NCBI GenBank assembly: GCA_049967655.1 | Contig: JBMFSH010000008.1 | Span: 39,268-103,267, forward strand | DNA: 64,000 nt | Source of the DNA: Acidobacteriota bacterium | Lineage (GTDB): Bacteria; Acidobacteriota; UBA4820; DSQY01 | Direction: 5' to 3' | Shown here: piece by piece, positions 7,075 to 60,567 of the stretch | Numbering within the stretch: position 1 is the first letter of the stretch | How the letters are laid out: every line of letters begins with the position of its first letter | Translations under genes and position numbers: made by a program | The notes under the pieces: generated by a model | What the model was told of the DNA's origin: nothing | Database searches by the model: none | The model's input: only the letters and a program-made list of their open reading frames with translations

Positions 7075-8145
7075 TCACGGTTGCTGGGCCGGGAGCGCCT
7101 TCTTGCCGGAGCGCAACAGATCCTTGACGATGCCGAGGGTGGCGTTGGTGGTTTCGATGGACTTGGCCCCGACCTTCTCCAGGCCCGTGAGCGCCCGGAT
7201 CGCGTCCACGTTCTCGGGGACCACGATGGACATGTTGTGGACCTGGTAGAAGAGGTAGAGCTCCACCCCGTCCACCGCCAGGATGTCCTCCCAGACCACC
7301 ACCTCCCACATGTCGCCGCGGGAGCGGCCCAGATCGTGGACCAGCTCCACGTTGCAGTTCAAGGCGGTGATGCCGTCGGAGGCGCGCACGAAGGCGATGC
7401 GGGGGGTCTTCCAGAGGACCTCCAGGACCTCCTCCCGGCTCGCCGGCCGGGTCATCTCGATCTGCCAGACGTGGGCGTGGCTGATGGTCTGCGGAGTCAG
7501 GATGGCCATGGTGGTGATGTTCAGGTCCGGCACGATGGTCTTGGCGTCGGGCGCCTGGTGGCTGGGCACGTGCAGCTCCGGCACGATGGTGTTCATGATG
7601 CCCGTCTGGTGAGTGTTCCAAGGATCCACGGCGCGTCGGGCCAGGGTCCCCCACCCCTTCTTCACGAGACCGGCCTTGTGCAGAGCCCCCAGGGTGCGGA
7701 CGATGGAGGTGGTGTTGCAAGAGACTACTCGCGTGGAGTTGAGACCCAGGGCGCTCTCGTAGTTGGCCTGGGCCACGAAGGAGTGGCCCGTCAGGGAGTG
7801 CTTCTCGGCGCCCTGGAAGATGGACTTGATGCCCAGTCCGTCGTAGAGGACCTTGTTCTTGGAAGCCACGGCTCTCGGTGTGCAGTCCACCACCACGTCC
7901 ACCTGCTTCAGCAGGTCGGGAAGGGTCCCGTGGACGTGGACGCCCGTCTCCCTCATGGTGGACCAAGCCTCCTCGGTCATGGCGTAGACCGGGATACCGT
8001 GGACCTCCGCCACCTGAACGCGGTAGTCCCCCACCACATCGGAAACGCCCACCAGCTCCATGTCGGGCTGGAGCCGCACCGCGTCCGCCACCCTCTTCCC
8101 GATGACCCCGTAGCCATTCACCGCCACGCGCGCTTTTCTATCCAT
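7075..8145 (-). CDS. gap: Type II (archaeal-type) phosphorylating glyceraldehyde-3-phosphate dehydrogenase
   Basis: VAVNGYGVIGKRVADAV, VVVDCTP, IFQGAEK and catalytic RVVSCNTT are type II GAPDH signatures. Confidence 0.9.
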   Translation of the reverse strand: MDRKARVAVNGYGVIGKRVADAVRLQPDMELVGVSDVVGDYRVQVAEVHGIPVYAMTEEAWSTMRETGVHVHGTLPDLLKQVDVVVDCTPRAVASKNKVLYDGLGIKSIFQGAEKHSLTGHSFVAQANYESALGLNSTRVVSCNTTSIVRTLGALHKAGLVKKGWGTLARRAVDPWNTHQTGIMNTIVPELHVPSHQAPDAKTIVPDLNITTMAILTPQTISHAHVWQIEMTRPASREEVLEVLWKTPRIAFVRASDGITALNCNVELVHDLGRSRGDMWEVVVWEDILAVDGVELYLFYQVHNMSIVVPENVDAIRALTGLEKVGAKSIETTNATLGIVKDLLRSGKKALPAQQP

Positions 8146-17968: not shown

Positions 17969-18340
17969 ATGAAGCAGACGATCCTCGTTATCGACGACAA
18001 CCCCGATCTGCTGGATATCGTCGATGCGATCCTCTCGGAAGCGGGTTTTTTAGTGGCCAAGGCCCTTTCGGGCGAGGACGGGCTGGGCGTGGCGCGAAAC
18101 CTTCGTCCCCACCTGATCCTCCTCGATCTGAACATGCCCAGGATGGACGGCTGGGAGGTCCTCAATCTCCTCAAGGCCGACGCCGTCACCAGGGAGATCC
18201 CCGTGGCCATCTTCTCGGTGCGCACCGACCTCAAGGACAAGATCTTCGGCCTCCAGCGGGGGGCCGTCGACTACATCCCCAAGCCCTTCCAGTACGACCG
18301 CCTGGCCGCGCGCGTCTCGCGGATCCTCGAGCACGCCTGA
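17969..18340 (+). CDS. Single-domain response regulator (receiver)
   Basis: ILVIDD, LLDLNMPRMDG, DYIPKPF. Confidence 0.9.
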   Translation: MKQTILVIDDNPDLLDIVDAILSEAGFLVAKALSGEDGLGVARNLRPHLILLDLNMPRMDGWEVLNLLKADAVTREIPVAIFSVRTDLKDKIFGLQRGAVDYIPKPFQYDRLAARVSRILEHA

Positions 18341-18488
18341 AACAACCAGCACCGTCGAAGCTGGACCACGGCACTGCGGGACGCGCAAGGCCCCTTGATG
18401 TCTGCTTGCCACGGGACGCGGCCCCTCGCCTCACGCCGAGGGGCCGCTCAAGGTCGGTTGCATGACGAAGGGAACGGCGGTGGCGCGC

Positions 18489-18749
18489 TCAGGCTCGGAT
18501 GCGCCCGCGTTCGATGGCGGCCTTCACCAGCGCCAGAATCTTCTCGAGTTCCTCCCGGACGGCCGCCTGGATGTGCTTGGGGTTCCCCAGCCCCTCGACG
18601 GCCGTCCTGTAGGAGGCGCGCTTCTGGAAGAGGATGCGCCCTCCCGCGTACACTCGCACCTCCAGCTCGGCGTTGCCTTCGAGATCCTCGATCTGGATGT
18701 GGAAATCGGCCCCGCCGTGCTCGAAGTGGGTGTTCACCCCGGTGATCAC
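18489..18749 (-). CDS. Small hypothetical protein
   Basis: 86 aa with protein-like composition; start overlaps the stop of the phosphoesterase gene. Confidence 0.65.
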   Translation of the reverse strand: MITGVNTHFEHGGADFHIQIEDLEGNAELEVRVYAGGRILFQKRASYRTAVEGLGNPKHIQAAVREELEKILALVKAAIERGRIRA

Positions 18750-19495
18750 GTGCCCACCTTCAGGCGGTTGGCCAAGTGGACCGGCAGCCCCGCCCTCCTG
18801 ATCCGTTCCGCCGCCACCTCCACCTCGTACTCCACCCTCCGGACCACCAGCCGCCGGGCCTCCGGGTAGAACTCCGCGAAGGCCGCCTTGGCGTTCCGGT
18901 CCCTGGGCTGGCCTACGGAGCCGGGGTTGATGAGGTAACGCGCCTCGGACGAAAGGGTCAGCTCCACCTGGTCGCCCCGGATGGGCAGGTATTCGACCCC
19001 CTCCTCGCTCTTCCGGTAGACCGCCGGGATGTGGGTGTGGCCGAAGAAGCAGATGTGGAAGGGGGCGGCCTGAAAGGCCTGGTAGGCGTCGAAATCCGAG
19101 AAGAGATAGGCGTCCTCGTCCTGGAACGAACCGTGGGCCAGCCAGATCCCGGGGAGCACCTCGACGGGCCCCACGGGCAGGCGCCGGAGGTACTCCCGGT
19201 TCTCCAGCCTCAGGTGGTGCAGCGTCCAGAGGGCCGCCTCCCGCGCGGCGCTGTTGAAGTTGTCGCCGTCCTCGATGCCGCAGCAGACCTTGTCGTGGTT
19301 GCCTCGCACCACTCGGAGGTTGCGCACCCTCCGGATCCGGCTCACCACGGGATTGGGGTTGGCCCCGTAGCCCACCAAGTCCCCGAGGCAGAAAACGCCC
19401 TCGTAGCGGCGTCGCTGGACGACCCGGAAGACGGCCTCCAGCGCCTGCTGGTTGGCGTGCACGTCCGAGATGATGAGGTAGCGCTTTCTGGCCAA
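18746..19495 (-). CDS. Metallophosphoesterase (calcineurin-like)
   Basis: SDVHAN, GDLVGYG, GNHD, GHTH, NPGSVGQPRD. Confidence 0.9.
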   Translation of the reverse strand: MARKRYLIISDVHANQQALEAVFRVVQRRRYEGVFCLGDLVGYGANPNPVVSRIRRVRNLRVVRGNHDKVCCGIEDGDNFNSAAREAALWTLHHLRLENREYLRRLPVGPVEVLPGIWLAHGSFQDEDAYLFSDFDAYQAFQAAPFHICFFGHTHIPAVYRKSEEGVEYLPIRGDQVELTLSSEARYLINPGSVGQPRDRNAKAAFAEFYPEARRLVVRRVEYEVEVAAERIRRAGLPVHLANRLKVGT

Positions 19496-19519
19496 CCCGT
19501 CTCCCTGCTTGGTTTCACG

Positions 19520-20008
19520 TTAGATGAAACGCAGAATCGCGTCAACCACCTCGTCCACCGTGAGCCCCTCCGTCCAGACCCGGTGGGAGGCCCTGGCGTA
19601 CCAGCGCCGGCGGCGGAGGAAGAGCCCGAAGAGGTCGGGGTCCTTCAGCATGGGCCGCCGGGCGTCACCGGCTACGCGCCTTTGCACCTCCTGGAAGGTG
19701 AGGTCGAGGTGAACGGTGGGGCCGAGCCGGTTCAGAAGAGGTGCGGTCTCGTCGTTAAAGCCCCCGCCCCCCACGGCGAGCACCCGCTGGCCCTCCTCCG
19801 GCGTGGAGAGGATGATCCGGCGCTCCAGGTCCCGGAAATAGGGCTCCCCTTTCTGGGCGAAGATCCGCGCGATGGGCATGCCCTCCTGCTCCTCGATGAG
19901 CGCGTCCGTATCCTTGAAGGGCCAGCGCAGGCGCATGGCCAGCACTCGCCCCACGGTGCTCTTGCCGCTCCCCATGAATCCCACGAGGGTGATAGTCCTG
20001 CCGCTCAT
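19520..20008 (-). CDS. aroK: Shikimate kinase
   Basis: GFMGSGKSTVG, DTD, GEPYFRDLE, GGG, RP. Confidence 0.9.
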   Translation of the reverse strand: MSGRTITLVGFMGSGKSTVGRVLAMRLRWPFKDTDALIEEQEGMPIARIFAQKGEPYFRDLERRIILSTPEEGQRVLAVGGGGFNDETAPLLNRLGPTVHLDLTFQEVQRRVAGDARRPMLKDPDLFGLFLRRRRWYARASHRVWTEGLTVDEVVDAILRFI

Positions 20009-20045
20009 GGGCTAACGGTAGCACAGCTTGTGGCGGGCAGCCTCC

Positions 20046-20139
20046 GGGAAACAGGGAATCAGGGAGAGCGCTCCAGAGACTTCGGGCTCTCCAGTTCCCT
20101 TTCCCTGTCACCCTGTCTCGCCGTCTCCCTGTTTCTCTC
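20046..20139. repeat. Imperfect inverted array of 8-mer purine-rich/pyrimidine-rich units
   Basis: ggaaacag-ggaatcag-ggagag on the left; ccctgtca-ccctgtct-cgccgtct-ccctgttt on the right. Confidence 0.45.
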
Positions 20140-20203
20140 CGAGAAGGAGGGGGGCCCCCATAAGCCGAAGAGGGAGCCGAAGCTCCCTCTCGTCAAATTA
20201 GGA

Positions 20204-20278
20204 TGGTGGGCGATGCTGGATTCGAACCAGCGACTCCTACCGTGTGAGGATAGTACTCTCCCGCTGAGTTAATCGCCC
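20204..20278 (-). tRNA. tRNA-Val (anticodon CAC)
   Basis: Reverse complement folds as a cloverleaf: GGGCGAT/ATCGCCC acceptor stem, anticodon loop CT-CAC-AC, TTCGAAT T-loop, encoded CCA. Confidence 0.95.
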
Positions 20279-20486
20279 ACGGGTTGTTCATGATAGGGGA
20301 GGCCCCAGTGCCCTGTCAAGTGGAACGGCGGGCCCCTCGGGTTGCCCGGAGTCTGGGTGTTCGAGTAGACTCTGAGTCTGTCCGCCAGCCTCAAGGCCTT
20401 TGGCGGGTGGAGGATGAACGCCGGCTCTCCTCGAACGAGCCGCCCGAACCCCGTCGCACAGCGGGTTCCACGCTGGAGGTTCACCC

Positions 20487-22118
20487 ATGGCCAATAATCT
20501 GATCCCCGTCCCGAAGCCGCAGAACGAGCCGGTCTTCTCCTACGCCCCCGGCTCCCCCGAGAAGAAAATCCTCAAGGCCGAACTGAGCCGCATGCTCCGC
20601 GAGGAGATCGAGATCCCCCTCGTCATCGGCGGGAAGGAAGTCCGCACGGGCAACACGGCGAAGGCCGTCTGCCCCCACGACCACAAGCACGTTCTGGCCA
20701 CCTACCACCAGGCCGGCCCGAAGGAGGTGGAGCAGGCCATCGTCGCCTCCCAGGAGGCCTGGAAGGAGTGGTCGGCCATGCCATGGGAGCACCGGGCGGC
20801 CATCTTCCTGAAGGCCGCCGACCTCCTGGGCGGCCCCATGCGTGCGACGGCCAACGCGGCGACCATGCTCAACCAGAGCAAGACGGCCTTCCAGGCGGAG
20901 ATCGACTCGGCCTGCGAGCTCATCGACTTCTACCGCTTCAACCCCTACTACATGCAGTTCGTCTACCAGCAGCAGCCGGACAGCGTGAAGGGCATCTGGG
21001 ACTACGCCGAGTACCGTGCGCTGGAGGGCTTCATCTTCGCCGTGACGCCCTTCAACTTCACCTCCATCGCGGGCAATCTGCCCACGGCGCCCGCCATGAT
21101 GGGCAACGTGGTGCTCTGGAAGCCCGCCTCCTCGGCGGTCTTCTCGGCCTACCAGATCCTCAAAGTCCTGCAGGCGGCGGGGCTACCCGACGGCGTGATC
21201 AACTTCGTACCGGGCCGCGGCGGGGCGGTAGGTGACCCCGTCCTCGCCAGCCCCCACTTCGCCGGCGTCCACTTCACCGGCTCCACGGCGGTCTTCCAGG
21301 GTATGTGGAGGACCATCGGCGCCAACATCGCGAAGTACAAGAGCTACCCGCGCATCGTTGGAGAGACGGGCGGCAAGGACTTCGTCTTCGCCCACGCCAG
21401 CGCCGACTCCGCAGCCCTCGTCACGGCCCTGGTGCGCGGCGCCTTCGAGTTTCAGGGTCAAAAGTGTTCGGCCGCCTCCCGCGCTTACATCCCGAAGAGC
21501 CTCTGGCCCAAGGTGAAGGAGCAGCTCCTGGCCCAGATCGCCGAGATCAAGATGGGTTCTCCCCTCGATTTCCGAAACTTCATGACGGCGGTCATCGACC
21601 AGAACGCCTTCAAGGACCACAAGGGCTACATCGACTTCGCCAAGGCCTCGCCCGAGGCAGAGATCCTGTGCGGCGGCGGCTGCGACGACTCCCTCGGCTA
21701 CTTTATCCAGCCCACCGTGGTCCAGACCACCAATCCCAAGTTCAAGCTCATGGAGGAAGAGATCTTCGGCCCCGTCCTCACCCTCTACGTCTACGAGGAC
21801 ACCAGGCTGGACGAAACCCTCGAGCTCTGCGACACCACGAGTCCCTACGCCCTCACGGGCGCCGTCTTCGGCACCGACCGCAAGGCCATCATGAAGATGA
21901 TGGAGCGCCTGCGGCACTCCTCGGGGAATTTCTACATCAACGACAAGCCCACGGGCGCCGTGGTGAGCCAGCAGCCCTTCGGCGGCGGCCGCGCCAGCGG
22001 CACCAACGACAAGGCGGGCTCCTACCTCAACCTCATTCGCTGGACCAGCATGCGCGCCGTCAAGGAGACCTTCGTCCCCCCCACCCACTTCGCCTACCCC
22101 TTCATGGCGGAGGAGTAG
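20487..22118 (+). CDS. pruA: L-glutamate gamma-semialdehyde (delta-1-pyrroline-5-carboxylate) dehydrogenase
   Basis: NEPVFSYAPGSPE, FTGST, GETGGKDF, QGQKCSA, EEIFGP, FGGGRASGTNDKAG. Confidence 0.93.
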   Translation: MANNLIPVPKPQNEPVFSYAPGSPEKKILKAELSRMLREEIEIPLVIGGKEVRTGNTAKAVCPHDHKHVLATYHQAGPKEVEQAIVASQEAWKEWSAMPWEHRAAIFLKAADLLGGPMRATANAATMLNQSKTAFQAEIDSACELIDFYRFNPYYMQFVYQQQPDSVKGIWDYAEYRALEGFIFAVTPFNFTSIAGNLPTAPAMMGNVVLWKPASSAVFSAYQILKVLQAAGLPDGVINFVPGRGGAVGDPVLASPHFAGVHFTGSTAVFQGMWRTIGANIAKYKSYPRIVGETGGKDFVFAHASADSAALVTALVRGAFEFQGQKCSAASRAYIPKSLWPKVKEQLLAQIAEIKMGSPLDFRNFMTAVIDQNAFKDHKGYIDFAKASPEAEILCGGGCDDSLGYFIQPTVVQTTNPKFKLMEEEIFGPVLTLYVYEDTRLDETLELCDTTSPYALTGAVFGTDRKAIMKMMERLRHSSGNFYINDKPTGAVVSQQPFGGGRASGTNDKAGSYLNLIRWTSMRAVKETFVPPTHFAYPFMAEE

Positions 22119-22171
22119 GGAGAACCCATCACCACGGTGCCACAGGCACGGTGGCAGCAAGCTTTCGTGGA

Positions 22172-22199
22172 AAGGGCGGGCCGGCGGTCCGCCCTTCTT
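22172..22199. terminator. Probable bidirectional terminator between pruA and the ACT-domain gene
   Basis: aagggcgg(gcc)-ggc-(ggt)ccgccctt stem between convergent genes. Confidence 0.55.
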
Positions 22200-22203
22200 G
22201 TAT

Positions 22204-22860
22204 TTACGGCCAGAAGTAGGCCTTGAGGATGGAGAAGGCCCGGTCCACGTCGCGCTTTTCCAGAACGATGGTGAGCTCGGTGTAGGTGGAGACGAGCTCC
22301 ACCACGTTGATGCCGGCCCACATCAGCTGTTTGAGGATGGAGTAGTAGACGCCGGGCATGTCCACGATGCGGGGGGTGTAGTGGATGCCCACGGCGGCGA
22401 GATCCCGGAGGCGGGCCACGCGTCGCTCCTGCTCGAACACCCTCTCCACGAGAGGCTCCAGCCCCGCGTTCACCATGACGGTCATCTCGTGCACGCCGTG
22501 GGTGAAGGTCACGAAGGCGTGGCCCTCCCCGCGCACCTCCGCCAGGAGGGCCGTCTGACACCGGAGAATGGTGGGGGAATGCTGAAAGGTGAACTCGGTG
22601 ATGTCGGAGCGCACCGTCACATCCTGGATCTGGCGGCCCACCTTCTTGGGGGTGGAGGCCTTCCGGGCGAGCCGCCCCGAAAGGCGGCTCAAGGCTACGA
22701 TCACGGCCCCCTCACCCACGGGCTTCCGAGCCTCGGCCTCCACCTGGGGGCGGATGGCGCGCGCCACCGCCGAGAGGTTCAGGATCCCCGAGGCCAGTCC
22801 CTCTTCGAGGACCGGCGCCCCCCGGACGATGCGCCCCACGGCCGCGGCGACGGTGATCAT
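22204..22860 (-). CDS. ACT-domain protein with helical N-terminus (aspartate-kinase-regulatory-like); possible regulator
   Basis: C-terminal PGVYYSILKQLMWAGINVVELVSTYTELTIV is ACT-like; no kinase domain; divergent from lysW. Confidence 0.7.
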   Translation of the reverse strand: MITVAAAVGRIVRGAPVLEEGLASGILNLSAVARAIRPQVEAEARKPVGEGAVIVALSRLSGRLARKASTPKKVGRQIQDVTVRSDITEFTFQHSPTILRCQTALLAEVRGEGHAFVTFTHGVHEMTVMVNAGLEPLVERVFEQERRVARLRDLAAVGIHYTPRIVDMPGVYYSILKQLMWAGINVVELVSTYTELTIVLEKRDVDRAFSILKAYFWP

Positions 22861-22910
22861 GTTCGAAATATAACACTTTTCTTCGAATCATGAAAGATTC
22901 ATCCAGATTT

Positions 22911-22939
22911 TTGACGTCCGCGTTCCCGCGGGCCAGAAT
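22911..22939 (+). promoter_or_regulatory. Putative sigma70 promoter of the lysW operon
   Basis: TTGACG-17 bp-CAGAAT, then a GGAGGT RBS before lysW. Confidence 0.55.
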
Positions 22940-22962
22940 GCGCCCTCTTGTGGAGGTGCAAC

Positions 22963-23139
22963 ATGACCGCTTCCTACGCTCTCTGCCCCGTCTGCGACGC
23001 CCAAGTCCCCGTTCCCCCGAACCCTGTGCTTTCCGAACTCCTGGTCTGCGAATCGTGCAGCGTGGCCTTGGAGGTCCGCGCGCTAGACCCCGTGGTCCTG
23101 GACGAGGCCCCCCAGGAAGAAGAGGACTGGGGCCAGTGA
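22963..23139 (+). CDS. lysW: Amino-group carrier protein LysW (variant C-terminus EEEDWGQ)
   Basis: 58 aa acidic protein; zinc ribbon CPVC...CESC; ends APQEEEDWGQ; strong RBS; first gene of a lysX/Y/Z/J cluster. Confidence 0.93.
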   Translation: MTASYALCPVCDAQVPVPPNPVLSELLVCESCSVALEVRALDPVVLDEAPQEEEDWGQ

Positions 23140-24350
23140 GCCTCACCATCCTGGACACCACCCTGCGCGAAGGCGAGCAGACGCCGGGCGTCTGCTTCGA
23201 CGTCCACATCAAGCTCGCCATCGCCGACCTGCTCGACCGCGTGGGGGTGGAGGTGATCGAGGCGGGTCATCCCGCCGTCACCGAGGAGATTCGTCGCTCC
23301 GTGACGCTTCTGGCGGCCGGGGGCCTGGGCCCCCGCGTGGGCGCCCACGCCCGCTCGCTGGAGAGCGACGTGGACCTGGCCCTCGCGTGCGGCGTCGGCT
23401 TCCTCGGAGTCTTCTACTGCGTCACCGACGAGCGGCTGGAGGACCACCGCCAGACCCTGACCCGCGCCCTGGACCGCATCGCTCGCGTCATCGCCTATGC
23501 GCGGGAGCGGCGGCCGGACCTCTGGATCCGCTACACCCCCGAGGACACCGTGCGGAGCCCCTTCGAGAACGTCCTCTCGGCCGCCACGGCCGCCGTGCAC
23601 GCCGGGGCCGACATCATCAGCGTGGCGGACACCACGGGCTTCCTGATCCCGGGGACTCCCCGAGACATGTACGGCTTTGTGGCCCGCCTGCGCGACGGTC
23701 TCGCGGCGCGCGGGGCCTTTCCCAAGATTGCCGTGCACTGCCACAACGATCGCGGGCTTGCCCTCGCCAACGTGCTGGACGGCCTTCGCGCGGGAGCCGA
23801 GGTCGTGGACGCGAGCGTCCTGGGCCTCGGCGAGCGGGCCGGCATCGTGGACCTGGCGACGCTGCTCGCGGTGCTGGCCCACGATTTCGGAGAGGCGGAG
23901 CGGTGGGATCTCACCGTCCTGCCCGAGCTCTACGATCTCGTGTCGCGCTACGCCCGCATCCCGGTTCCGGCGCACTTCCCGGTCACGGGGCGCAACGCCT
24001 TCACCCACTGCGCCGGCATCCACACCCAGGCCGCCACCCGCAACCCGCTGCACTACCAGAGCCTGCCCGCCGAGCTCGTGGGCCGGAAATCGGAGATCGC
24101 CCTCGACCACATGTCGGGGTTGGCCTCGGTCCGCCACTGCCTGGCGCTCCTCGGAATCGAGGCCGGCGCGGAGCTGGCGCGCGCGGTGCTCCGCAGGGTC
24201 AAGGATGTGGGCCAGACGGGCCGCACCGTGGACCTCATCGAGCTCAAGTACATCGTGCGCGCCCTGGAAGCGTCAGAGGGGGGATGGCGCGTTGACGCCG
24301 TCGCGACCTCGCTCGGGCCGGAGCCCGAGGAGAAGACCGGCACCTGCTGA
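23136..24350 (+). CDS. Homocitrate synthase-like (DRE-TIM/LeuA family) enzyme
   Basis: LDTTLREGEQTPG, ADTTG, HCHNDRG, GLGERAG, FTHCAGIH; GTGA overlap with the lysW stop; lysine-operon context. Confidence 0.8.
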   Translation: MSLTILDTTLREGEQTPGVCFDVHIKLAIADLLDRVGVEVIEAGHPAVTEEIRRSVTLLAAGGLGPRVGAHARSLESDVDLALACGVGFLGVFYCVTDERLEDHRQTLTRALDRIARVIAYARERRPDLWIRYTPEDTVRSPFENVLSAATAAVHAGADIISVADTTGFLIPGTPRDMYGFVARLRDGLAARGAFPKIAVHCHNDRGLALANVLDGLRAGAEVVDASVLGLGERAGIVDLATLLAVLAHDFGEAERWDLTVLPELYDLVSRYARIPVPAHFPVTGRNAFTHCAGIHTQAATRNPLHYQSLPAELVGRKSEIALDHMSGLASVRHCLALLGIEAGAELARAVLRRVKDVGQTGRTVDLIELKYIVRALEASEGGWRVDAVATSLGPEPEEKTGTC

Positions 24351-24374
24351 AGGGGCCGGGCCGAAGGAGAGACG

Positions 24375-25250
24375 ATGGTCCGCATCGGTTTTCTGCATTC
24401 CGTCATCCGACGCGAGGAGAAGCTCCTCCTCGAAACCCTGGCCGCCCAGGCCGGCGTGGAGGTGGTGCCCCTGGATGACCGTACGCTCACCTTCGCCCTG
24501 CCGGGCCGCCCGGCCGCCATGGACCTGGTGCTGGACCGCTCCCTCACGCACTCCAGGGCCCTCTACGCGCTTCGTCTCTTCGAGAGCGCCGGCGTGCGGT
24601 GCGTCAACCCCTCCCGCGCCGTCGCCCTCTGCGGCGACAAGCTCCTGACCAGCATCGCCCTGGCGGAGGCGGGCATCCCTCAGCCAGAGGTTCGGACCGC
24701 CTTCACGCCCGAGGCCGCCCTCGCCGCCATCGAGGAGATGGGCTACCCCGTGGTCCTCAAGCCCTGCGTGGGCTCGTGGGGGCGCCTGCTGGCCAAGGTG
24801 AATGACCGCGACGCGGCGGAGGCGCTGCTCGAACACAAGGTCACCCTCGGCAGCTACCAGCACGGCATCTTCTACATCCAGCGCTACGTGGAGAAGCGCG
24901 GGAGGGACATCCGCGCCTTCGCGGTGGGCGGGGAGTGCGTGGCCGCCATCTACCGGACGTCGGACCACTGGATCACCAACACGGCACGGGGAGGCGTGGC
25001 CACGAACTGCCCCGTGAACGACGGCCTGGCCGATCTCTGCGCGCGGGCGGCGCGGGCCGTGGAGGGCGACGTGGTGGCCCTCGACCTCTTCGAGGGCGAG
25101 GCGGGCTACCTCGTCAACGAGGTCAACCACACCATGGAGTTCAAGAACAGCGTGGCACCCACGGGCGTGGACATCCCCGGGCTCATCGTCCGGCACGTCC
25201 TCTCGCTCGCCCGCGGTGTGGCAAGCCTGGCCGAGGCCGCCCATGGCTAA
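24375..25250 (+). CDS. lysX: Alpha-aminoadipate--LysW ligase (RimK/ATP-grasp)
   Basis: [40 protein letters not shown]. The last two are LysX-type rather than ArgX-type. Confidence 0.92.
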
Positions 25251-26289
25251 GCTCCGCGTGGCCATCGTGGGAGCCTCCGGCTACACGGGCGGGGAACTGC
25301 TGAGAATCTTCCTCCACCACCCGAGCGCCGAGGTGGTCCAGGCCACCTCCGAGCGCCACGCCGGTCGCGGCGTGGGCACGGTGCATCCCAACCTGCGCGG
25401 CCGCAGCTCGCTCTCCTTCAGCAAGCGGGACGACCTGGCCCCCTGCGACGCCCTCTTCCTCTGCCTTCCCCACGGGGAGACGGCGCCCGCCGCCGAGGCC
25501 CTCCTGCCCATGGCCGAGCGGGTGCTGGACCTGAGCGCCGACTTCCGCCTGCGCGACCAAGCTGCCTATCCGCGCTGGTACGGCTTCGACCACCCAAGGC
25601 CCGACCTCTTGGGGCACTTCGTCTACGGCATCCCGGAACTGCACCGCGACCAGATCCGCGCCTCGCGCCTTGTGGCCGTGGCCGGCTGCAACGCCACGGC
25701 CGTCATCCTCGCGCTCCATCCGCTCTTCGCCGAAGGGATCGCCCCGGCCGACGGCACCGTGGTGGAGGTGAAGGTGGGCTCCAGCGAGGGCGGCGCCGCC
25801 TTTTCGGCCTCCAGCCACCACCCCGAACGCGCCCACTGCCTGCGCTCCTATCGCCCCACGGGCCACCGCCACCAGGTGGAAATCGAGCAGGAGCTGGCCC
25901 TTCGCGGCCCCGTCCGCGTGCACCTCTCGGCCACCGCCGTGGACGAGGTCCGCGGCCTCCTCGCCACGGCCCACGTCTTTCCCACCCGGCCCGTCGATGA
26001 GAAGGAGATTTGGCGCCTCTACCGGCGCGCTTACGGAGAGGAGCCCTTCGTCCGCATCGTCAAGGGCCGCGACGGGAACTACCGCTACCCGGAGCCCAAG
26101 GTGCTCTGGGGCACCAACACCTGCGAGGTGGGCTTCGAGCTGGACGCCGCCTCGGGCCGCCTCGTGGTGATCTCCGCCCTGGACAACCTGGTCAAGGGAG
26201 GAGCGGGCCAGGCCGTCCAGTGCTTCAACCTCATGCACGGCTTTCCCGAAACGGCTGGGCTGGAATTCCCCGGCCTCCATCCGGTGTGA
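25243..26289 (+). CDS. lysY: LysW-gamma-aminoadipyl-phosphate reductase (ArgC family)
   Basis: [43 protein letters not shown]. Confidence 0.9.
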
Positions 26290-26291
26290 CC

Positions 26292-26939
26292 ATGTGTCGC
26301 CTCCTCGCCGTCGCCTCCACGAATCCCATCGACGCGGGCCGCCACCTCGATGCCTTCCGGCGCCTCTGCCGACAAAGCCGCGGATACCAGGGCCACGGCT
26401 GGGGCTGCGCCGTCTGGCGGGAGGGACGCTGGGAGCGCTACCGTACGGTGCGTCCCGTCTGGGAGGACGACTACCGGCCCGAGGGCGAGGTGCGCGCCTT
26501 CGTGGCTCACGCCCGCAGCGCCTTCCGCGACGAGGGCATCGAGGAGGAGAACAACATGCCGTTTCTCATGGGGCCGCGGGCCTTCGTCTTCAACGGCGAG
26601 ATGCGGGGCGTCCGGCTGGGCCTTCGCGGGCGGACCGGTGCCGACAAGCTCTTGGGCCTGATCAGCGCCATGGACCGGGGCGACACTGCGGAGGCCATCG
26701 AACGCACGAGGGCGGTCCTGGTCCGGCGAAGCGCGCGCATCCGGGCCTGCAACTTCATCCTCGCGGAGCCGGGGCGCTTCCACCTTCACGTCCTCTTCGA
26801 CGGCGAGGCCGACTACTTCACCATGGTTCAGAGGCGCGCGGACGGCGAGCTCGTGATTTGCTCGGAGCCGTACCCGGAGGATGAAGGCCCATGGGAGCCC
26901 CTGCCCTCGGGGACGCGGAGGGCCATTCCGTGGTCATAG
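26292..26939 (+). CDS. Class II glutamine amidotransferase-like Ntn hydrolase (YafJ/EgtC/Dug3-like)
   Basis: Starts M-C-R-L-L (Cys2 nucleophile); GHGWG, AHARSA, NNMPF, FVFNG, CSEP; 2 nt after the lysY stop and overlapping the lysZ start. Confidence 0.85.
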   Translation: MCRLLAVASTNPIDAGRHLDAFRRLCRQSRGYQGHGWGCAVWREGRWERYRTVRPVWEDDYRPEGEVRAFVAHARSAFRDEGIEEENNMPFLMGPRAFVFNGEMRGVRLGLRGRTGADKLLGLISAMDRGDTAEAIERTRAVLVRRSARIRACNFILAEPGRFHLHVLFDGEADYFTMVQRRADGELVICSEPYPEDEGPWEPLPSGTRRAIPWS

Positions 26940-27721
26940 TGAAGGTAGGCGGAGGGAAGGGCCTCAACCTGGAGGGCCTCGCCGAGGACGTCGCGCGCCT
27001 CGATGAGGGCGTGCTCATCGTGCATGGCGCCAACGCCTGGCGCGACGAGCTGGCCGAGAGGCTCGGCGTGCGCCTGGAGGTGCTCACTTCGGCCAGCGGT
27101 TACGCCAGCGTCCTCTCCGACGAGCCCCTGATGGAGCTCATGCTCATGGCCTACGCTGGGCTGCGCAACAAGCGGCTGGTGGAGGCTTTGTTGCGGCGGG
27201 GCGTGCGCGCCGTTGGGCTCACGGGCCTCGACGGTGCCGTGATTCGCGGGCGCCGGAACGCGGCCATCCGCGCCCGCGAAGGGGACAAGATCGTCCTCAA
27301 GCGCGACCTCTCGGGCAAGCCGCGGGAGGTCAACGCGCCGCTCCTGCGGATGCTGCTCGATGGGGGCTACACGCCCGTCCTCACGGTGCCCATCGCCGAC
27401 GAGAACGGCTTCGCGGTGAACTCGGAGAACGATGAGGTGGTGGCGCTCTTCCAGGAGACCTTCCGCGCCCGGTGCGTGGTCCACCTCATCGAGGCCGCGG
27501 GCCTCCTCGCGGACCGAGCCGCCCCGGCCTCGGCCGTTGCCTCGCTGAGCAGGGACGAACTCGCGCGCCTCGAGGCCGATGCGCCGGGCCGCTTCCGGCG
27601 CAAGCTCCGCGCCATCCTGCGGACGCTGGAGGCTGGGCCCGTGTGGGTCGCCATCGCCGACGGCCGCACCGCCCATCCGCTCGAAGGGGCGCTGTCAGGA
27701 AAGGGGACGGTGATCCAATGA
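26930..27721 (+). CDS. lysZ: LysW-gamma-aminoadipate kinase (ArgB family)
   Basis: VIVKVGG, IVHGAN, SGYASV, GLTGLDG, C-terminal GTVI. Confidence 0.88.
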   Translation: MVIVKVGGGKGLNLEGLAEDVARLDEGVLIVHGANAWRDELAERLGVRLEVLTSASGYASVLSDEPLMELMLMAYAGLRNKRLVEALLRRGVRAVGLTGLDGAVIRGRRNAAIRAREGDKIVLKRDLSGKPREVNAPLLRMLLDGGYTPVLTVPIADENGFAVNSENDEVVALFQETFRARCVVHLIEAAGLLADRAAPASAVASLSRDELARLEADAPGRFRRKLRAILRTLEAGPVWVAIADGRTAHPLEGALSGKGTVIQ

Positions 27722-28872
27722 CCGATTTCGCCTCCATGGAGGAGGCCCACGCCCTACCCCTCTACGCCAAGCGCGGCATCGTCCTCGTGCGCGGGGAGAA
27801 GGCCCGCGTCTGGGACCAGGATGGCCGCTGCTACATTGATTGCGTGGCGGGCCACGGGACGGCCAGCCTCGGCCACTGCCACCCCGCCGTGGTGGAGGCC
27901 GTGCGCCAGCAGGCCGGGCGCCTCATCAGCTGCAGCAACACCTTCTACAACGACGCCCGCGCCCTCTTCCTCGAACGCCTGGCCGGCGCGGCGCCACCGG
28001 GCCTGGGCCGCGCCTTCCTCTGCAACTCCGGCGCCGAGGCGGTGGAGGCCGCTCTCAAGCTCGCCCGCTTCACCACGGGCCGCGCGCGGTTCGTCTGCGC
28101 GAGGCAGGCCTTCCACGGCCGCACCCTCGGCGCCCTGAGCGCCACCCACAACCCACTCTACCGCGACGGCTTCGGCCCTTTGGTGGAAGGCTTCAGCTTC
28201 GTCCCCTTCAACGACCTCCAGGCTGCCGAGGCCGCCGTCACAGGCGAGACGGCGGGCGTCCTCCTGGAGGTGGTCCAGGGGGAGGGCGGGGTGCACGTGG
28301 CGGACGGCGACTACCTGGCCGGCGTCGCGGCCCTCTGCCGGGAGCGCGGCGCGCTCCTGCTCATCGACGAAGTCCAGACGGGCTTCTGCCGCACGGGGCG
28401 CCTCTTCGCCTTCGAGCGCTTCGGCCTCGAGCCCGACCTCGTCTGTCTTGCCAAGGCCATCGCGGGCGGCCTCCCCATGGGCGCCGTGCTCTGTTCGTCC
28501 GCCATCCAGGCCCAGCCCAACAAGCACGGCACCACCTTCGGCGGCAACCCCCTCTGCTGCGCCGCCGCTTCGGCCTCCCTCGGCGTCATGGTGGAGACGC
28601 GGCTCTGGGAGCAGGCCGAGCGAAAGGGCGAGGCCCTCATGGCGCGCCTCGGCGCCATCCGCAGCCCCCGCGTGCGCCAGGTCCGCGGCCTCGGCCTGAT
28701 GGTGGGGATCGAGCTTCGCGAGAAGGTGCGGCCCCACCTGGACCGGCTCGCCGCCGAGGGCGTCCTCGCCCTGCCCGCCGGCCCCAACGTCCTGCGCCTC
28801 TTGCCCCCGCTGACCATCGAGGAGGACGACCTCGACCGCGTGGCCGAGGCCGTTGAGCGCGTCCTGGGCTGA
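27718..28872 (+). CDS. lysJ: LysW-aminoadipate semialdehyde transaminase (ArgD family, PLP)
   Basis: YIDCVAG, CNSGAEA, FHGRT, DEVQTG, AKAIAGG, HGTTFGGNP. Confidence 0.88.
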   Translation: MTDFASMEEAHALPLYAKRGIVLVRGEKARVWDQDGRCYIDCVAGHGTASLGHCHPAVVEAVRQQAGRLISCSNTFYNDARALFLERLAGAAPPGLGRAFLCNSGAEAVEAALKLARFTTGRARFVCARQAFHGRTLGALSATHNPLYRDGFGPLVEGFSFVPFNDLQAAEAAVTGETAGVLLEVVQGEGGVHVADGDYLAGVAALCRERGALLLIDEVQTGFCRTGRLFAFERFGLEPDLVCLAKAIAGGLPMGAVLCSSAIQAQPNKHGTTFGGNPLCCAAASASLGVMVETRLWEQAERKGEALMARLGAIRSPRVRQVRGLGLMVGIELREKVRPHLDRLAAEGVLALPAGPNVLRLLPPLTIEEDDLDRVAEAVERVLG

Positions 28873-29243
28873 CCGGGAGAGAGCGCCGGCAACGGCGCGC
28901 GGCTCAGGCTCCCCGTGCCTCGCCCCCCGCGGGAATTTCGTGCGGAGCGTCTTCGGTGGGACGGCCCTAGGAGAGGTCACGGCGCCGGGTCGGCTCCACC
29001 AGAGAACCCCAGAGAGCCCCCCGTGCCTTGCCGCATCCCTGGACCTATGGTCCGTCTCGAGATTCCTCGGCGCCTCTGCGCCTCTGTGGTGATCCCTTTG
29101 CCCCTCTTTCTCCGCCGGGGCCGGGCAGGCTACAGCCCCCGGACCATGGCCTGCATGAGGTAGGGTTCGCGGGTCATCTGGCTCACCGCGCAGGCCACTT
29201 CGCCCTTGGGGCGCCAGCCCTCGCGGCCCCTGCGCCCCATCAG

Positions 29244-30455
29244 TCAGAACCCCTCATCCAGGAGCCCCTTCACCGCCTCCGCCAGCTTTTCGTAGTGGGC
29301 CGGCTCGTTGTAGAGCTGGGCCGAGAGCCGCAGGACCCTGCGGGGAAAGGCGGGCCAGTAGATGACGGGCACCTCCATGCGGTGCCTCTCCCACAGGGCG
29401 ACCTGGAGCGGGTCCAGAAAGAGGGGCGGCTGGGGCTTCGGCCCTGGCGCGTCGGGCAGGGGGACGGCGGCCATGGAGCCCACCATGGACTCGGGGCACG
29501 GTTCGGCGATGCGTAGGGCGTCACAGAGGAGCCGCCGGCCCCGGAGGGCCAGGGCCCGGTTCCTGGCCATCACCTCGGGCCAACCCCCCGGAAGCAGGGA
29601 GCCGAGAAAGCGGATGGCTTCAGCCACGCAGAGGTAGGGCGTGGGATCGTGGGTGCCCGTCCAGCCGAACTCCAGCAGGAAACGCGAGCGGTCGGTGCGG
29701 GGGGAGTTGGCCCCGTGGCTGACGACCAGCGGGCGCACGCCCGGCTGAAGGTCCCGACGCACGTGGAGGAGGGCGGCCCCCTTCGGGGCGCAGAGCCACT
29801 TGTGGCAGTTGCCCGTGTAGTAGGCCGCTCCGAGGGAGGAGAGGGCGAGGGGCAGCATCCCGGGGCCGTGGGCTCCGTCCACGAGCGTCTCCACGCTCCG
29901 CGCCGCCATCTCGCGAACGAGGGCGGCGACGGGCATCACGAGGGCCGTCTGGCTCACCACGTGGTCCACGAGCAGGAGGCGCGTGCGGGGGGTGACCCGG
30001 CGCAGGATCGCCTCCACGGCCGCCTCTGGCGAGGCGCCGGGAAAGGGGAGGGCCGCCACTACCACCCGCGCTCCTGTGCGGCGGGCGGCCTCCTCCAGGG
30101 CGTTGCGGCAGGCGTTGTACTCCTGGTCGGTGACGAGGAGCTCGTCCCCCGGCGAGAGCCGAAGGGAGGCCAGGACGGTGTTGACGCCGGCGGTGGCGTT
30201 CGATACGAAGACCATGTCGTCGGGATCGGCGCCGACGAAGGCGGCGAGGGAGGCCCGAGCCGCGTCCCAGAGGGGCTCCAGCTCGACGCCAAGGAAGCGC
30301 ACCGGCTCCTGCTCCATCCGCTCCCTGAAGCTTTGCTGCAGGGCGAGGACGGGCCTGGGGCAGGCCCCGAAGGAGCCGTGGTTCAGAAAGAGGACGGACG
30401 GATCCAGCCCCCAGTGGGTGTTGACCTCCAAGTCCGCCAGGCTCTCGTCGCTCAT
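29244..30455 (-). CDS. Class V PLP-dependent enzyme (isopenicillin N epimerase/cysteine lyase-like)
   Basis: FLNHGSFGACP, VDGAH, GNCHKWLCAPKG, WTGT, RLSAQLYN. Confidence 0.85.
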   Translation of the reverse strand: MSDESLADLEVNTHWGLDPSVLFLNHGSFGACPRPVLALQQSFRERMEQEPVRFLGVELEPLWDAARASLAAFVGADPDDMVFVSNATAGVNTVLASLRLSPGDELLVTDQEYNACRNALEEAARRTGARVVVAALPFPGASPEAAVEAILRRVTPRTRLLLVDHVVSQTALVMPVAALVREMAARSVETLVDGAHGPGMLPLALSSLGAAYYTGNCHKWLCAPKGAALLHVRRDLQPGVRPLVVSHGANSPRTDRSRFLLEFGWTGTHDPTPYLCVAEAIRFLGSLLPGGWPEVMARNRALALRGRRLLCDALRIAEPCPESMVGSMAAVPLPDAPGPKPQPPLFLDPLQVALWERHRMEVPVIYWPAFPRRVLRLSAQLYNEPAHYEKLAEAVKGLLDEGF

Positions 30456-58040: not shown

Positions 58041-58290
58041 TGCCACAAGTTCAAAGCAGGCGGGCGGTCCGCGGTGCTTTGGAACCATAGGAGCTGGAGG
58101 GGCCGGGATCGCTTCCCGGCGAACAGGATGGAACAAGAGCAGCCACCAAGTCCCGCCGCCCTCAAGAAGAAGAGGGCATTACAATATGTCGGATCCTTTG
58201 GCCTCGCTCATTTCCAGCGAGGCATTGTCGTTTCTGGAGACCAAGTCGGCGAGGCACCCGGCATGGAGCCGGGGCCGCAGGGAGGCCGCC

Positions 58291-59547
58291 ATGCTGGATA
58301 GTCCAGCACCATCATCACCCCCGTCAGGAAGGTCGTCCTATTTCCCCGAGGCCACCGATGAGCAGTGGAATGACTGGCGGTGGCAATACCGAAACCGCAT
58401 CAAGGACCTCGAGACGCTCCACCGCCTCCTTCCCTACTCCAAGAGCGAGTACCAGCAGCTCAAGCTCCTCTCGCCCAGCCTGCACGTGGGCATCCCTCCT
58501 TACTACCTGAGCCTCATCGATCCGAGCGATCCCGAGGATCCCGTTCGCAAGCAGGCCGTCCCTTCGATCCTGGAGTACACCTACCGGAGCGTGGGCATCG
58601 ACGACCCCCTGGGCGAGGATGCCGACATGCCGGTAGAGGGGCTGGTGCACCGGTATCCCGACCGGTGCCTCTTCATCGCCACCAACATGTGCCCCATGTA
58701 CTGCCGCCACTGCACCCGTCGCCGGGAGTGGGAGGATGGCGAGCTGCCGAAGAACCGCCAGCAGCTCGACGCCATGATCGACTACATCCGGCGCACCCCG
58801 CAGATCCGCGACGTCATCTTCTCGGGGGGCGACCCCCTTTCCCTTCCGCTGCCGGTGCTCGACTACTGCCTCACGGAGCTCCGCAAGATCCCGCACGTGG
58901 AGATCATCCGCATCGGCACGCGATTCCCCGTGGTCCTTCCTCAGCGCATCACGGACGAGCTGGTCGGCGTTCTCGGGAAGCACCTGCCCGTTTGGATGAA
59001 CACCCACTTCAATCATCCCAACGAACTGACCCCCGAGGCCGCCGCCGCGTGCCGCAAGGTCCTCTCCGCGGGCATCCCGGTGAACAACCAGTCCGTGCTC
59101 ATGCGGGGCGTGAACGACAACGCCCAGACCATGCTGCGGCTCTGTCACGGACTCCTGAAAATGGGCGTCCGCCCCTACTATCTCTTCCAGTGCGACCCGA
59201 TCCACGGCGCCGAGCACCTTCGGACCTCCGTCTGGACGGGCGTGGAGATCATCGAGAAGATGCGCGGGTGGACCTCGGGCCTCGCCATCCCCACCTTCGT
59301 AGTGGATACGGAGGGCGGAGGCAAGGTCCCCATCACCTCCAACTACATCATGTACGCCACCGAGGACACCCTCGTGCTCCGCAACTACGAAGGCAAGATC
59401 TTCCCCTACAGGAATCCCGCTCCTGCCACCCGAAGCAAGCCAAGGCGCCCGGCGGCCCAGGCCGCCCAGGGCCGATCCAACCGAGCCACTCGCCCCCACC
59501 TCGCCCAACTCAGGTTCACCCCCGATGCGAATCGGCCTGACGTTTGA
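58291..59547 (+). CDS. KamA-family radical SAM aminomutase (lysine 2,3-aminomutase-like)
   Basis: WNDWRWQ, HRYPDR, CPMYCRHCTRRR, SGGDPL, NQSVL, YYLFQCD, DTEGGGK (PLP Lys). Start chosen for its GGAGG RBS; alternative ATG at 58186. Confidence 0.9.
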   Translation: MLDSPAPSSPPSGRSSYFPEATDEQWNDWRWQYRNRIKDLETLHRLLPYSKSEYQQLKLLSPSLHVGIPPYYLSLIDPSDPEDPVRKQAVPSILEYTYRSVGIDDPLGEDADMPVEGLVHRYPDRCLFIATNMCPMYCRHCTRRREWEDGELPKNRQQLDAMIDYIRRTPQIRDVIFSGGDPLSLPLPVLDYCLTELRKIPHVEIIRIGTRFPVVLPQRITDELVGVLGKHLPVWMNTHFNHPNELTPEAAAACRKVLSAGIPVNNQSVLMRGVNDNAQTMLRLCHGLLKMGVRPYYLFQCDPIHGAEHLRTSVWTGVEIIEKMRGWTSGLAIPTFVVDTEGGGKVPITSNYIMYATEDTLVLRNYEGKIFPYRNPAPATRSKPRRPAAQAAQGRSNRATRPHLAQLRFTPDANRPDV

Positions 59548-60526
59548 CATGAAGCCCACGGGGAGCCCGGTTCCCTCCGCGCTCCCCGATGATCTCTTCG
59601 AGGAGTACGACCCACCTTCAACCGTAGGAGCCATCGAAGCGGCCATCGCGGAGTGCGGCCATGAGGTGGTGCGCCTGGGCGGCGGGCGGGAGTTCCTGGA
59701 GCGGGTGCTCCACGAACCCGTGGACTTCGTCTTCAACATCGCCGAGGGGCGCGGCGCCTTCAGGAGCCGCGAGGGCCAAGTGCCATCGGTGCTGGAGATG
59801 CTTGGCATCCCCTACAGCTTCTCCGACCCGCTCACTCTCGCCATCAGCCTGGACAAGCCGCTCACCAAGCGCCTCGTGGCCGCCGCCGGAGTGGCGGTGG
59901 CGCCCGACTGGGTCGTGGAGAGCGAATCGGATCTCGACCGCCTGCTTCGGAGCGGCCCTCCCTTTCCACTCTTCGCCAAGCCGGCCTTCGAGGGCTCCTC
60001 CAAGGGGATCCGCGGCAGCTCGCGCCTGGAGGGGGCCGGGCAACTGAGGGAGAGGGTCGGCGACATACTGCGCTCCTACGCCCAACCGGTGATGGTGGAA
60101 GGCTTCGTGGCCGGCGACGAGTACACCGTCGGCATCATCGGGAACAACCCGCCCGAGGCCATCGGCGCCATGAGGATACGGCCCAGGAGCGGCGCGGACC
60201 CCGACTTCGTCTATTCCATCGAGGTGAAGCGCGACTGGGAGAACCAAGTCGCCTACGACGTCCCTCCGCCGCTGCCAGCGGACCTGCTGGCGCGGCTCTA
60301 CGCCGACGCGGTCAAGGCTTTCTCCGCGATCGGCTGCCGGGACGTGGCCAGGGTGGACTTCCGGATCCGCGAAGGCGTGCCCGTCTTCCTGGAGATCAAT
60401 CCCCTGCCCGGACTTTCTCCGGCCTACGGCGACCTCCCCATCCTCTCGCGCGGCATGGGCATTGCCTATCCGGCGCTGATGTCGCGCATACTGTCGGCGG
60501 CCTTCGCGCGCTGCGGACTGGCGTGA
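59525..60526 (+). CDS. D-Ala-D-Ala-ligase-like ATP-grasp enzyme 1
   Basis: FNIAEG, LDK, KPAFEGSSKGI, ARVDFR, LEINPLPG; lacks the canonical Ddl HG..GEDG motif. Confidence 0.85.
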   Translation: MRIGLTFDMKPTGSPVPSALPDDLFEEYDPPSTVGAIEAAIAECGHEVVRLGGGREFLERVLHEPVDFVFNIAEGRGAFRSREGQVPSVLEMLGIPYSFSDPLTLAISLDKPLTKRLVAAAGVAVAPDWVVESESDLDRLLRSGPPFPLFAKPAFEGSSKGIRGSSRLEGAGQLRERVGDILRSYAQPVMVEGFVAGDEYTVGIIGNNPPEAIGAMRIRPRSGADPDFVYSIEVKRDWENQVAYDVPPPLPADLLARLYADAVKAFSAIGCRDVARVDFRIREGVPVFLEINPLPGLSPAYGDLPILSRGMGIAYPALMSRILSAAFARCGLA

Positions 60527-60567
60527 AAGGGAAGGCGGGCCCGGCGGACGGCACTCAAGGCGAAGAC

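Follow-up and report, generated by a model that had tools for sequence, protein, structure and literature searches.

In Thermus thermophilus, Sulfolobus, and Thermococcus, the amino-group carrier protein (AmCP) LysW is composed of a zinc-ribbon core and an acidic EDWG tail with a C-terminal glutamate residue (EDWGE), and it is encoded in an operon with lysX, lysY, lysZ, and lysJ. Linkage in the LysW complexes known so far is through the γ-carboxyl group. To our knowledge, the pathway is usually described with the C-terminal glutamate as the essential attachment point and with LysK as the sole release enzyme. LysK, the [LysW]-lysine/ornithine hydrolase, is an M20 metallopeptidase of the ArgE/DapE family (TIGR01902), present in Thermus, Sulfolobus, and Thermococcus, which catalyzes the last step, the cleavage of the γ-glutamyl-lysine bond. 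In this report, we describe a LysW operon located on a stretch of 64,000 nucleotides (the window) of an Acidobacteriota bacterium (assembly GCA_049967655.1, contig JBMFSH010000008.1, positions 39,268 to 103,267 of the forward strand). Its LysW shares core, acidic tail, and operon context with the carriers mentioned above, but its terminal residue is glutamine, which cannot be phosphorylated by an ATP-grasp ligase, and lysK is absent. The gene order is lysW, a homocitrate synthase-like gene (hcs), lysX, lysY, a gene for an N-terminal nucleophile (Ntn) hydrolase, lysZ, and lysJ. From sequence comparisons, a model of the complex, and the analogy to known systems, we estimate at about 0.6 the probability that this hydrolase replaces LysK as LysW γ-glutamyl amidase and that the same chemistry deamidates each LysW-Gln once.

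The lysW gene (22963..23139, forward strand) encodes an AmCP of 58 amino acids, MTASYALCPVCDAQVPVPPNPVLSELLVCESCSVALEVRALDPVVLDEAPQEEEDWGQ, with the two CxxC pairs of the zinc ribbon (CPVC and CESC) and the tail EEEDWGQ. The protein scores above the cut-offs of the LysW family models PF21344 (42.3 bits vs. 27) and TIGR01206 (57.1 bits vs. 53.2), and the match to the hidden Markov model stops at position 53 of 54. LysX, LysY, LysZ, and LysJ are all encoded in the same tightly coupled operon, and this copy is the only lysW of the genome, which has a completeness of 99.3%. The 3′ end of the gene reads GAG GAC TGG GGC CAG, the CAG codon (23134-23136) being followed by a TGA stop codon (23137-23139), exactly as the initial annotation of this stretch had it. 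That annotation had also raised the question of whether EDWGQ might be unique to this genome, which it is not: the ending was present in 12 of 12 homologs (59-97% identity) obtained in a word-index search, and glutamine tails recur in several phyla. As the search returned these 12 close relatives only, the wider census of tails was read from loci.

The CAG codon is genuine and not an artefact. Four public runs, each from a different study, contain contigs of relatives (90-95% identity) that span the 3′ end of lysW and keep the glutamine; between positions 23104 and 23139 no difference is listed for these contigs, although many are listed elsewhere and a further 22 are not displayed. The strain itself was not found in any public run (in the best case, a share of 0.19 of the sampled words was present), and the material used for this check consisted of assembled contigs of relatives rather than raw reads. 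The lack of public raw reads of the strain itself is what speaks for a sequencing or assembly error, or for a decaying lysW gene. Given the uniform homologs, the conserved contigs, the occurrence of glutamine tails in several phyla, the intact operon, and a genome in which no lysA gene scored above the cut-off, we regard error or decay as next to impossible.

The Ntn hydrolase gene (26292..26939, forward strand) encodes a protein of 215 amino acids starting with MCRLLAV. Its assignment to the class II amidohydrolases in the initial annotation is corroborated by fold, sequence profile, and catalytic residues, all of which point to an EgtC-like cysteine amidohydrolase with the class II glutamine amidotransferase (GATase) fold and Cys2 as the nucleophile. 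The cysteine directly follows the initiator methionine, which presumably is removed. The AlphaFold model (pLDDT, the predicted local distance difference test, 92) gave the EgtC structures 4zfl, 4zfj, and 4zfk as the top solved matches in Foldseek (TM score 0.75, E 5e-13), followed by the glutaminase domains of GlmS, PurF, and GFAT, in agreement with the four-layer Ntn fold. The sequence profile likewise matches EgtC and 3mdn (E 1.6e-6), and R75 and N101-G102 align with the arginine and the Asn-Gly of EgtC. In an alignment of 63 sequences, R75, N101-G102, and H73-A74 are invariant and C2 is present in at least 90% of the rows, whereas in an alignment of eight sequences C2 is invariant. By analogy to PurF and GlmS, we take R75 to contact the α-carboxylate of the substrate and N101-G102 to form the oxyanion hole. 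The protein is not EgtC proper, as its score lies below the cut-off of that family and its neighbors are lys genes rather than ergothioneine genes. At E ≤ 1e-10, 2224 relatives were obtained, which are named "hypothetical protein" or "predicted glutamine amidotransferase" in the sources. Just four of the relatives are longer proteins; an amino-acid-kinase domain is present in two of these and LysY-type domains in one. In one metagenome-assembled Acidobacteriota genome (L041:10001-11446, P0133), hydrolase and LysZ form a single frame of 481 amino acids; such long frames (P0133, also P0134 and P0136) may represent genuine but rare fusions or result from artefactual frameshifts.

In a scan in which each species was represented by a single genome, relatives of the hydrolase were encoded at 517 loci; these belong to the Acidobacteriota, the phylum of the window, and to the Gemmatimonadota, Gammaproteobacteria, Ignavibacteriota, Calditrichota, KSB1, and others. 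In all 80 of the 517 loci that were fetched, the hydrolase gene adjoins lysY and/or lysZ, the usual order being lysW-(hcs)-lysX-lysY-hydrolase-lysZ-lysJ. A divergent clade, which likewise starts with Met-Cys, is located directly 3′ of lysJ in five Acidobacteriota genomes and four metagenome contigs, which is the usual place of lysK; in a sixth genome of this clade (G164), the hydrolase gene lies at the start of another contig and the contig with the operon ends at lysJ. As a separate observation, most operons of the after-lysJ clade have a weakly homocitrate synthase (HCS)-like gene of the HMGL type (124-143 bits) between lysY and lysZ (among L133, L140, L146-L148, L166, L206, and L219). The exceptions are L133 and L145, with HCS genes of 474 and 529 bits, respectively, both between lysW and lysX, and L197, which has none.

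In the LysW genomes sampled, hydrolase and LysK are mutually exclusive. Among 401 Acidobacteriota genomes, LysK scored above the cut-off in none of the 19 that encode the hydrolase, but in 22 of the 24 that have LysW without the hydrolase, all of which are Glu-ended; of the remaining two, one (G376) gave no match and the other (G185) a partial match of 143 bits. A single Acidobacteriota genome (G244) has LysK, with LysW not being found. The distribution in the Gemmatimonadota is of the same kind, since the 11 genomes with LysW among 151 sampled comprise nine with the hydrolase only and two with LysK only, and in five hydrolase genomes from other phyla LysK did not reach the cut-off either (0/5, best score 67.5 bits). 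In the genome of the window itself, no LysK above the cut-off of TIGR01902 was found (best score 70 bits vs. 163) and the operon contains no M20 domain; the 70-bit gene is an ArgE/DapE-family M20 gene situated between argB and argH.

The distribution of the tails is linked to that of the hydrolase in one direction only: among the sampled genomes and contigs, glutamine tails are restricted to operons that carry the hydrolase, and glutamate tails occur with and without the enzyme. The co-occurrence that the initial annotation had proposed to look for is thus seen in 10 of 10 Acidobacteriota genomes, in one of one in the Gemmatimonadota, and in 12 of 12 long metagenome contigs. The remaining Acidobacteriota genomes counted were six with a glutamate tail and the hydrolase and 24 with a glutamate tail and no hydrolase; in the Gemmatimonadota, the hydrolase was found together with Gln in G553 and LysK together with Glu in G444 and G498. 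The 80 hydrolase-centered loci comprised 44 with EDWGE, 18 with EDWGQ, and 18 in which LysW was not seen. A scan of metagenomes for EEDWGQ followed by a stop codon gave 80 loci, of which 49 were true LysW genes and 31 were discarded as chance matches. Because selection by the presence of the hydrolase would have been circular, contigs were scored according to their length past lysJ (at least 700 nucleotides), which left the 12 contigs mentioned above, all with the hydrolase. Six shorter contigs also carry it, while 31 of the 49 end too early to be scored, among them L202, which runs on into hcs and homoaconitase genes. An open reading frame (ORF) for LysK was found in none of the 49 loci.

The tail residue has changed repeatedly. 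When the tails of 63 labeled rows are mapped on the hydrolase tree, at least 12 changes between Glu and Gln are required, seven of which are forced by the starred branches. In the alignments of LysX, LysY, LysZ, and the hydrolase, no column varies in step with the tail, the maximum mutual information being 0.40-0.52 bits compared with a label entropy of 0.80-0.90, and control proteins behaved alike.

Several further carriers of the LysW type were encountered and left out of the Glu/Gln counts, namely those ending in EDFG[A/I/L] and zinc ribbons with poly-Asp/Glu/Tyr, EDWNE, EEWTE, or DEWEE tails. LysW-like zinc ribbons ending in AEDFGA, AEDFGI, or AEDFGL, with neither Glu nor Gln at the terminus, are encoded beside a homocitrate synthase-like gene at L135 (G084:C1:2024-2176), L136 (G357:C391:137-292), and L137 (G202:C9:319670-319831). 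As the genomes G084, G357, and G202 encode such other carriers, a family match ending at model position 53 proved unreliable as a proxy for a glutamine tail and was abandoned. Many Acidobacteriota possess LysW-like zinc ribbons with a long tail of the poly-Asp/Glu/Tyr type, for example ...DDDDEYYDDDDDEY (L021, L141, L143, L144, and many weak matches to TIGR01206), and the fetched stretches around them showed neither lysX nor lysY. Two metagenome contigs carry tandem LysW-like ORFs 5′ of lysX: L179 (3157-3333 and 3517-3690) and L226 (2651-2848 and 2909-3115).

A predicted complex of LysW and the hydrolase supports binding of the carrier with its tail placed at Cys2. The interface score ipSAE was 0.67 compared with 0.00 for the best control; of the solved complexes, 116 of 157 attain this value, as do 2 of 215 mismatched pairs, a calibration which is only rough because our own alignments were used for the present pair. 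Three runs of the model share at least 60% of the contacts, and the pLDDT of the partner is at least 77. In the modeled interface, residues 1-2, 75-78, 100-111, and 115-120 of the hydrolase face residues 51-58 of LysW.

On this basis, the following mechanism can be proposed. After removal of Met1, Cys2 would attack LysW at the γ-carbonyl of its C-terminal residue. If the substrate is LysW-γ-Glu-Lys, lysine would be freed and LysW-Glu regenerated; with newly made LysW-Gln, ammonia would leave and the resulting LysW-Glu could then be loaded with α-aminoadipate by LysX. The additional deamidation turnover would be needed only once per carrier molecule. The change from Glu to Gln, a single G-to-C transversion, would therefore be nearly neutral wherever the hydrolase is present, which would explain the frequent swaps between the two residues, and a deamidating hydrolase would explain why glutamine tails occur only beside it. 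The release activity is deduced from the exclusion of LysK, the position of the gene, and the complex model. Since the hydrolase is kept where there is nothing to deamidate, excludes LysK, and in one clade occupies the place of lysK, lysine release is most likely its main role, with deamidation drawing on the same chemistry for a second purpose. The initial annotation had assigned to the hydrolase the deamidation of LysW-Gln as a dedicated maturation or gating step. The deamidation itself stands as plausible in view of the co-occurrence with the tails and the complex model, but the notion of a dedicated activator does not, as 44 of the 62 operons with a hydrolase and a visible LysW are Glu-tailed and the distribution of the enzyme is the mirror image of that of LysK.

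Several points weigh against the replacement of LysK by the hydrolase. No Pfam family, including class II GATase models such as PF13230, matched the hydrolase at E ≤ 0.001, although a precomputed PF13230 match exists for some of its relatives, and the match to the NCBIfam model of EgtC (TIGR03442) is weak, its 39.6 bits falling far short of the cut-off (218.65). The substrate of EgtC is a free γ-glutamyl compound with a free α-amino group and not a protein terminus, and the complex model is the only source for the fit of a peptide-linked Glu or Gln in the hydrolase. With respect to the counts, related genomes are not independent, so that the numbers overstate the statistical weight, and one genome (G170), which belongs to the 19 hydrolase genomes and to the six Acidobacteriota with glutamate tail and hydrolase, is unpublished. 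Finally, the ArgE/DapE-family M20 gene located between argB and argH could in principle release lysine, and LysK of Thermus is described as a dual-specificity homolog of ArgE acting on both pathways (PMC12998189).

These last two points also favor the view that the Ntn enzyme is a maturase or gate which only deamidates pro-LysW(Gln), lysine being released by another enzyme such as an ArgE-like M20 hydrolase, and the restriction of glutamine tails to operons with the hydrolase would be expected from it. A dedicated maturase would, however, have no substrate in the majority of hydrolase-type operons; it would account neither for the mutual exclusion with LysK nor for the clade found after lysJ, and the M20 gene in question remains far below the LysK cut-off and lies among arg genes. 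We consider this possibility quite unlikely. A division of labor in the opposite sense, in which the hydrolase releases lysine and the conversion of Gln to Glu is brought about by something else (another amidase, LysX, or spontaneous deamidation) with only an indirect link to the hydrolase, would be compatible with the finding that no hydrolase column tracks the tail. Since every scorable glutamine tail came with the hydrolase, hydrolysis of the glutamine γ-amide is the native reaction of its fold, and the complex model has residue 58 of LysW in an interface that includes Cys2, we rate a separate deamidation as rather unlikely.

LysW-Gln might also be used unchanged, with LysX joining aminoadipate to the terminal α-carboxylate, which is present in both the Glu and the Gln form, or to another acidic residue. 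LysX belongs to the RimK-family ligases, which act on α-carboxylates in other systems. Such use would leave the confinement of glutamine tails to hydrolase-type operons unexplained; moreover, no LysX column tracks the tail across at least 7 to 12 Glu/Gln switches, and the γ-carboxyl linkage of the known complexes also argues against it, which together make it very unlikely. A more far-reaching proposal is that the glutamine tail is a selected, zymogen-like control point, the pro-carrier being inert until the release enzyme acts on it and entry into the pathway being tied in this manner to the unloading capacity. In its bolder form, a thioester at Cys2 would pass the γ-glutamyl group of LysW from the Gln amide or from LysW-Lys to α-aminoadipate, the hydrolase serving as a transamidase for ATP-free reloading. 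This idea appears unlikely to us, and we prefer the assumption that the hydrolase primarily releases lysine and deamidates LysW-Gln in passing.

The other genes of the operon, all on the forward strand, agree with an assignment to the lysine pathway. The hcs-like gene (23136..24350; HMGL-like and HCS_D2 domains), which was missing from the initial annotation, has a GTG start codon overlapping the stop codon of lysW and matches PF00682 (180 bits) and PF22617 (51.8 bits); its best NCBIfam match, the homocitrate synthase model TIGR02146, stays below the cut-off (309.5 bits vs. 413.55). It is followed by lysX (24375..25250; RimK and LysX_preATP_grasp domains; TIGR02144, 332.8 bits vs. 275.6), encoding the ATP-grasp ligase that loads LysW, and by lysY (25243..26289), encoding a reductase of the argC family (TIGR01850, 382.9 bits vs. 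233.6). Downstream of the hydrolase gene are lysZ (26891..27721), encoding the [LysW]-aminoadipate kinase with an AA_kinase domain (NF010659, 212.8 bits, below the cut-off of 223, with the alignment starting at residue 15), and lysJ (27715..28872), which encodes a class III aminotransferase (TIGR00707, 429.2 bits vs. 410) with LysJ (NF042418) as the top-scoring family. The true start of lysZ is likely the GTG at 26930 rather than the ATG at 26891. The genes are closely spaced: lysW and hcs overlap by 4 nucleotides (GTGA), lysX and lysY by 8, and lysZ and lysJ by 7, while 24 nucleotides separate the hcs-like gene from lysX and 2 separate lysY from the hydrolase gene, which in turn overlaps lysZ by 10 nucleotides (from the GTG) or 49 nucleotides (from the ATG). 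The statements of the initial annotation that lysX, lysY, lysZ, and lysJ are intact and tightly coupled and that the operon holds an extra Ntn gene with a Cys2 nucleophile agree with the ORFs and the family scores.

As the genome contains a second, canonical argC on another contig and a separate argB, and as the operon has its own hcs-like gene, it most likely represents a LysW-type α-aminoadipate route to lysine. The organism would need this pathway because no lysA gene above the cut-off was found in its genome; dapA gave a partial match at a contig edge (153 bits vs. 206), and the statement on absence is limited to lysA and does not extend to the whole diaminopimelate pathway.

Upstream of lysW, a promoter-like site, TTGACG-17-CAGAAT (22911..22939, forward strand; consensus match only), is the sole σ70-like match in 22700-29300, compared with a mean of 0.1 in shuffled sequences. 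A divergently oriented gene (22204..22860, reverse strand) with weak matches to ACT_7 and DUF7523 is a possible candidate for an operon regulator. The same kind of gene is located divergently from a Gln-ended lysW on the unrelated metagenome contig L202 (892-1554, reverse strand). In the AT-rich spacer between the divergent gene and lysW (22862-22900), there are two TTCGAA palindromes (22862-22867 and 22882-22887) and an inverted repeat, GAATC-N6-GATTC (22885-22900), the letters of which are nearly identical in the contigs of relatives; this spacer may contain an operator. No riboswitch was found 5′ of lysW, the only element in 18000-30000 that reached the Rfam gathering score being a tRNA (20207-20278).

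Two further loci of the window lie apart from the operon. At 58186-61581 (forward strand), a gene for a KamA-family aminomutase (best match lysine 2,3-aminomutase, 482.6 bits, cut-off 525.4) precedes two ATP-grasp genes of the D-Ala-D-Ala-ligase type; together, these genes may form a cluster for a β-amino-acid peptide. At 7075-8145 (reverse strand), a type II (archaeal-type) glyceraldehyde-3-phosphate dehydrogenase is encoded in this bacterial genome (NF003251, 447.7 bits vs. 185).

If the proposed function is correct, the last step of the LysW pathway falls, in 517 or more species-level genomes from many phyla, to an enzyme family that is unrelated to LysK and lacks an annotation. Because this family is named only as hypothetical protein or predicted glutamine amidotransferase, the pathway would then be wrongly rated as incomplete there by metabolic reconstructions. 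It would also follow that a biosynthetic carrier protein needs post-translational priming by conversion of Gln to Glu. In the literature covered by our search, which left most subscription journals outside, we found no paper on the replacement of LysK or on glutamine priming of LysW, nor the string "EDWGQ".

Three described systems are suited for comparison. LysK is the proposed functional equivalent of the hydrolase, and the distributions of the two are complementary in LysW genomes. Their folds and mechanisms are unrelated, LysK having the di-metal site of M20 enzymes and the hydrolase an N-terminal cysteine nucleophile, and they show no sequence similarity; the gene positions differ as well, since the hydrolase gene is mostly located between lysY and lysZ and lysK at the end of the operon. 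EgtC of the ergothioneine pathway (4zfj, 4zfk, and 4zfl) is the best match in structure and sequence, with which the hydrolase shares the N-terminal cysteine, the aligned arginine, and the Asn-Gly motif. EgtC cleaves a γ-glutamyl amide to the α-amine of an amino acid, i.e., the type of bond proposed as the target of the hydrolase. Identity is, however, only 22-27%, no ergothioneine genes lie near the hydrolase gene, and the hydrolase is proposed to act on the C-terminus of a protein, where the α-amino group is engaged in a peptide bond, whereas the substrate of EgtC is a free γ-glutamyl compound. The closest parallel in terms of logic is provided by Dop and Pup of the Actinobacteria. Pup ends in Gln in some species and in Glu in others, Dop both deamidates Gln-ended Pup and removes Pup from its targets, and loading is performed by a separate ATP-dependent ligase (PMC8599861). 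One hydrolase thus fulfills both tasks, as proposed here for LysW. The systems differ in that Dop has a glutamine-synthetase fold and uses an ATP-derived phosphate, whereas the present enzyme is an Ntn hydrolase, and in that Pup is a degradation tag for proteins and LysW the carrier of a biosynthetic intermediate; the LysW system would therefore represent the Pup/Dop logic a second time, independently and on the basis of a different fold.

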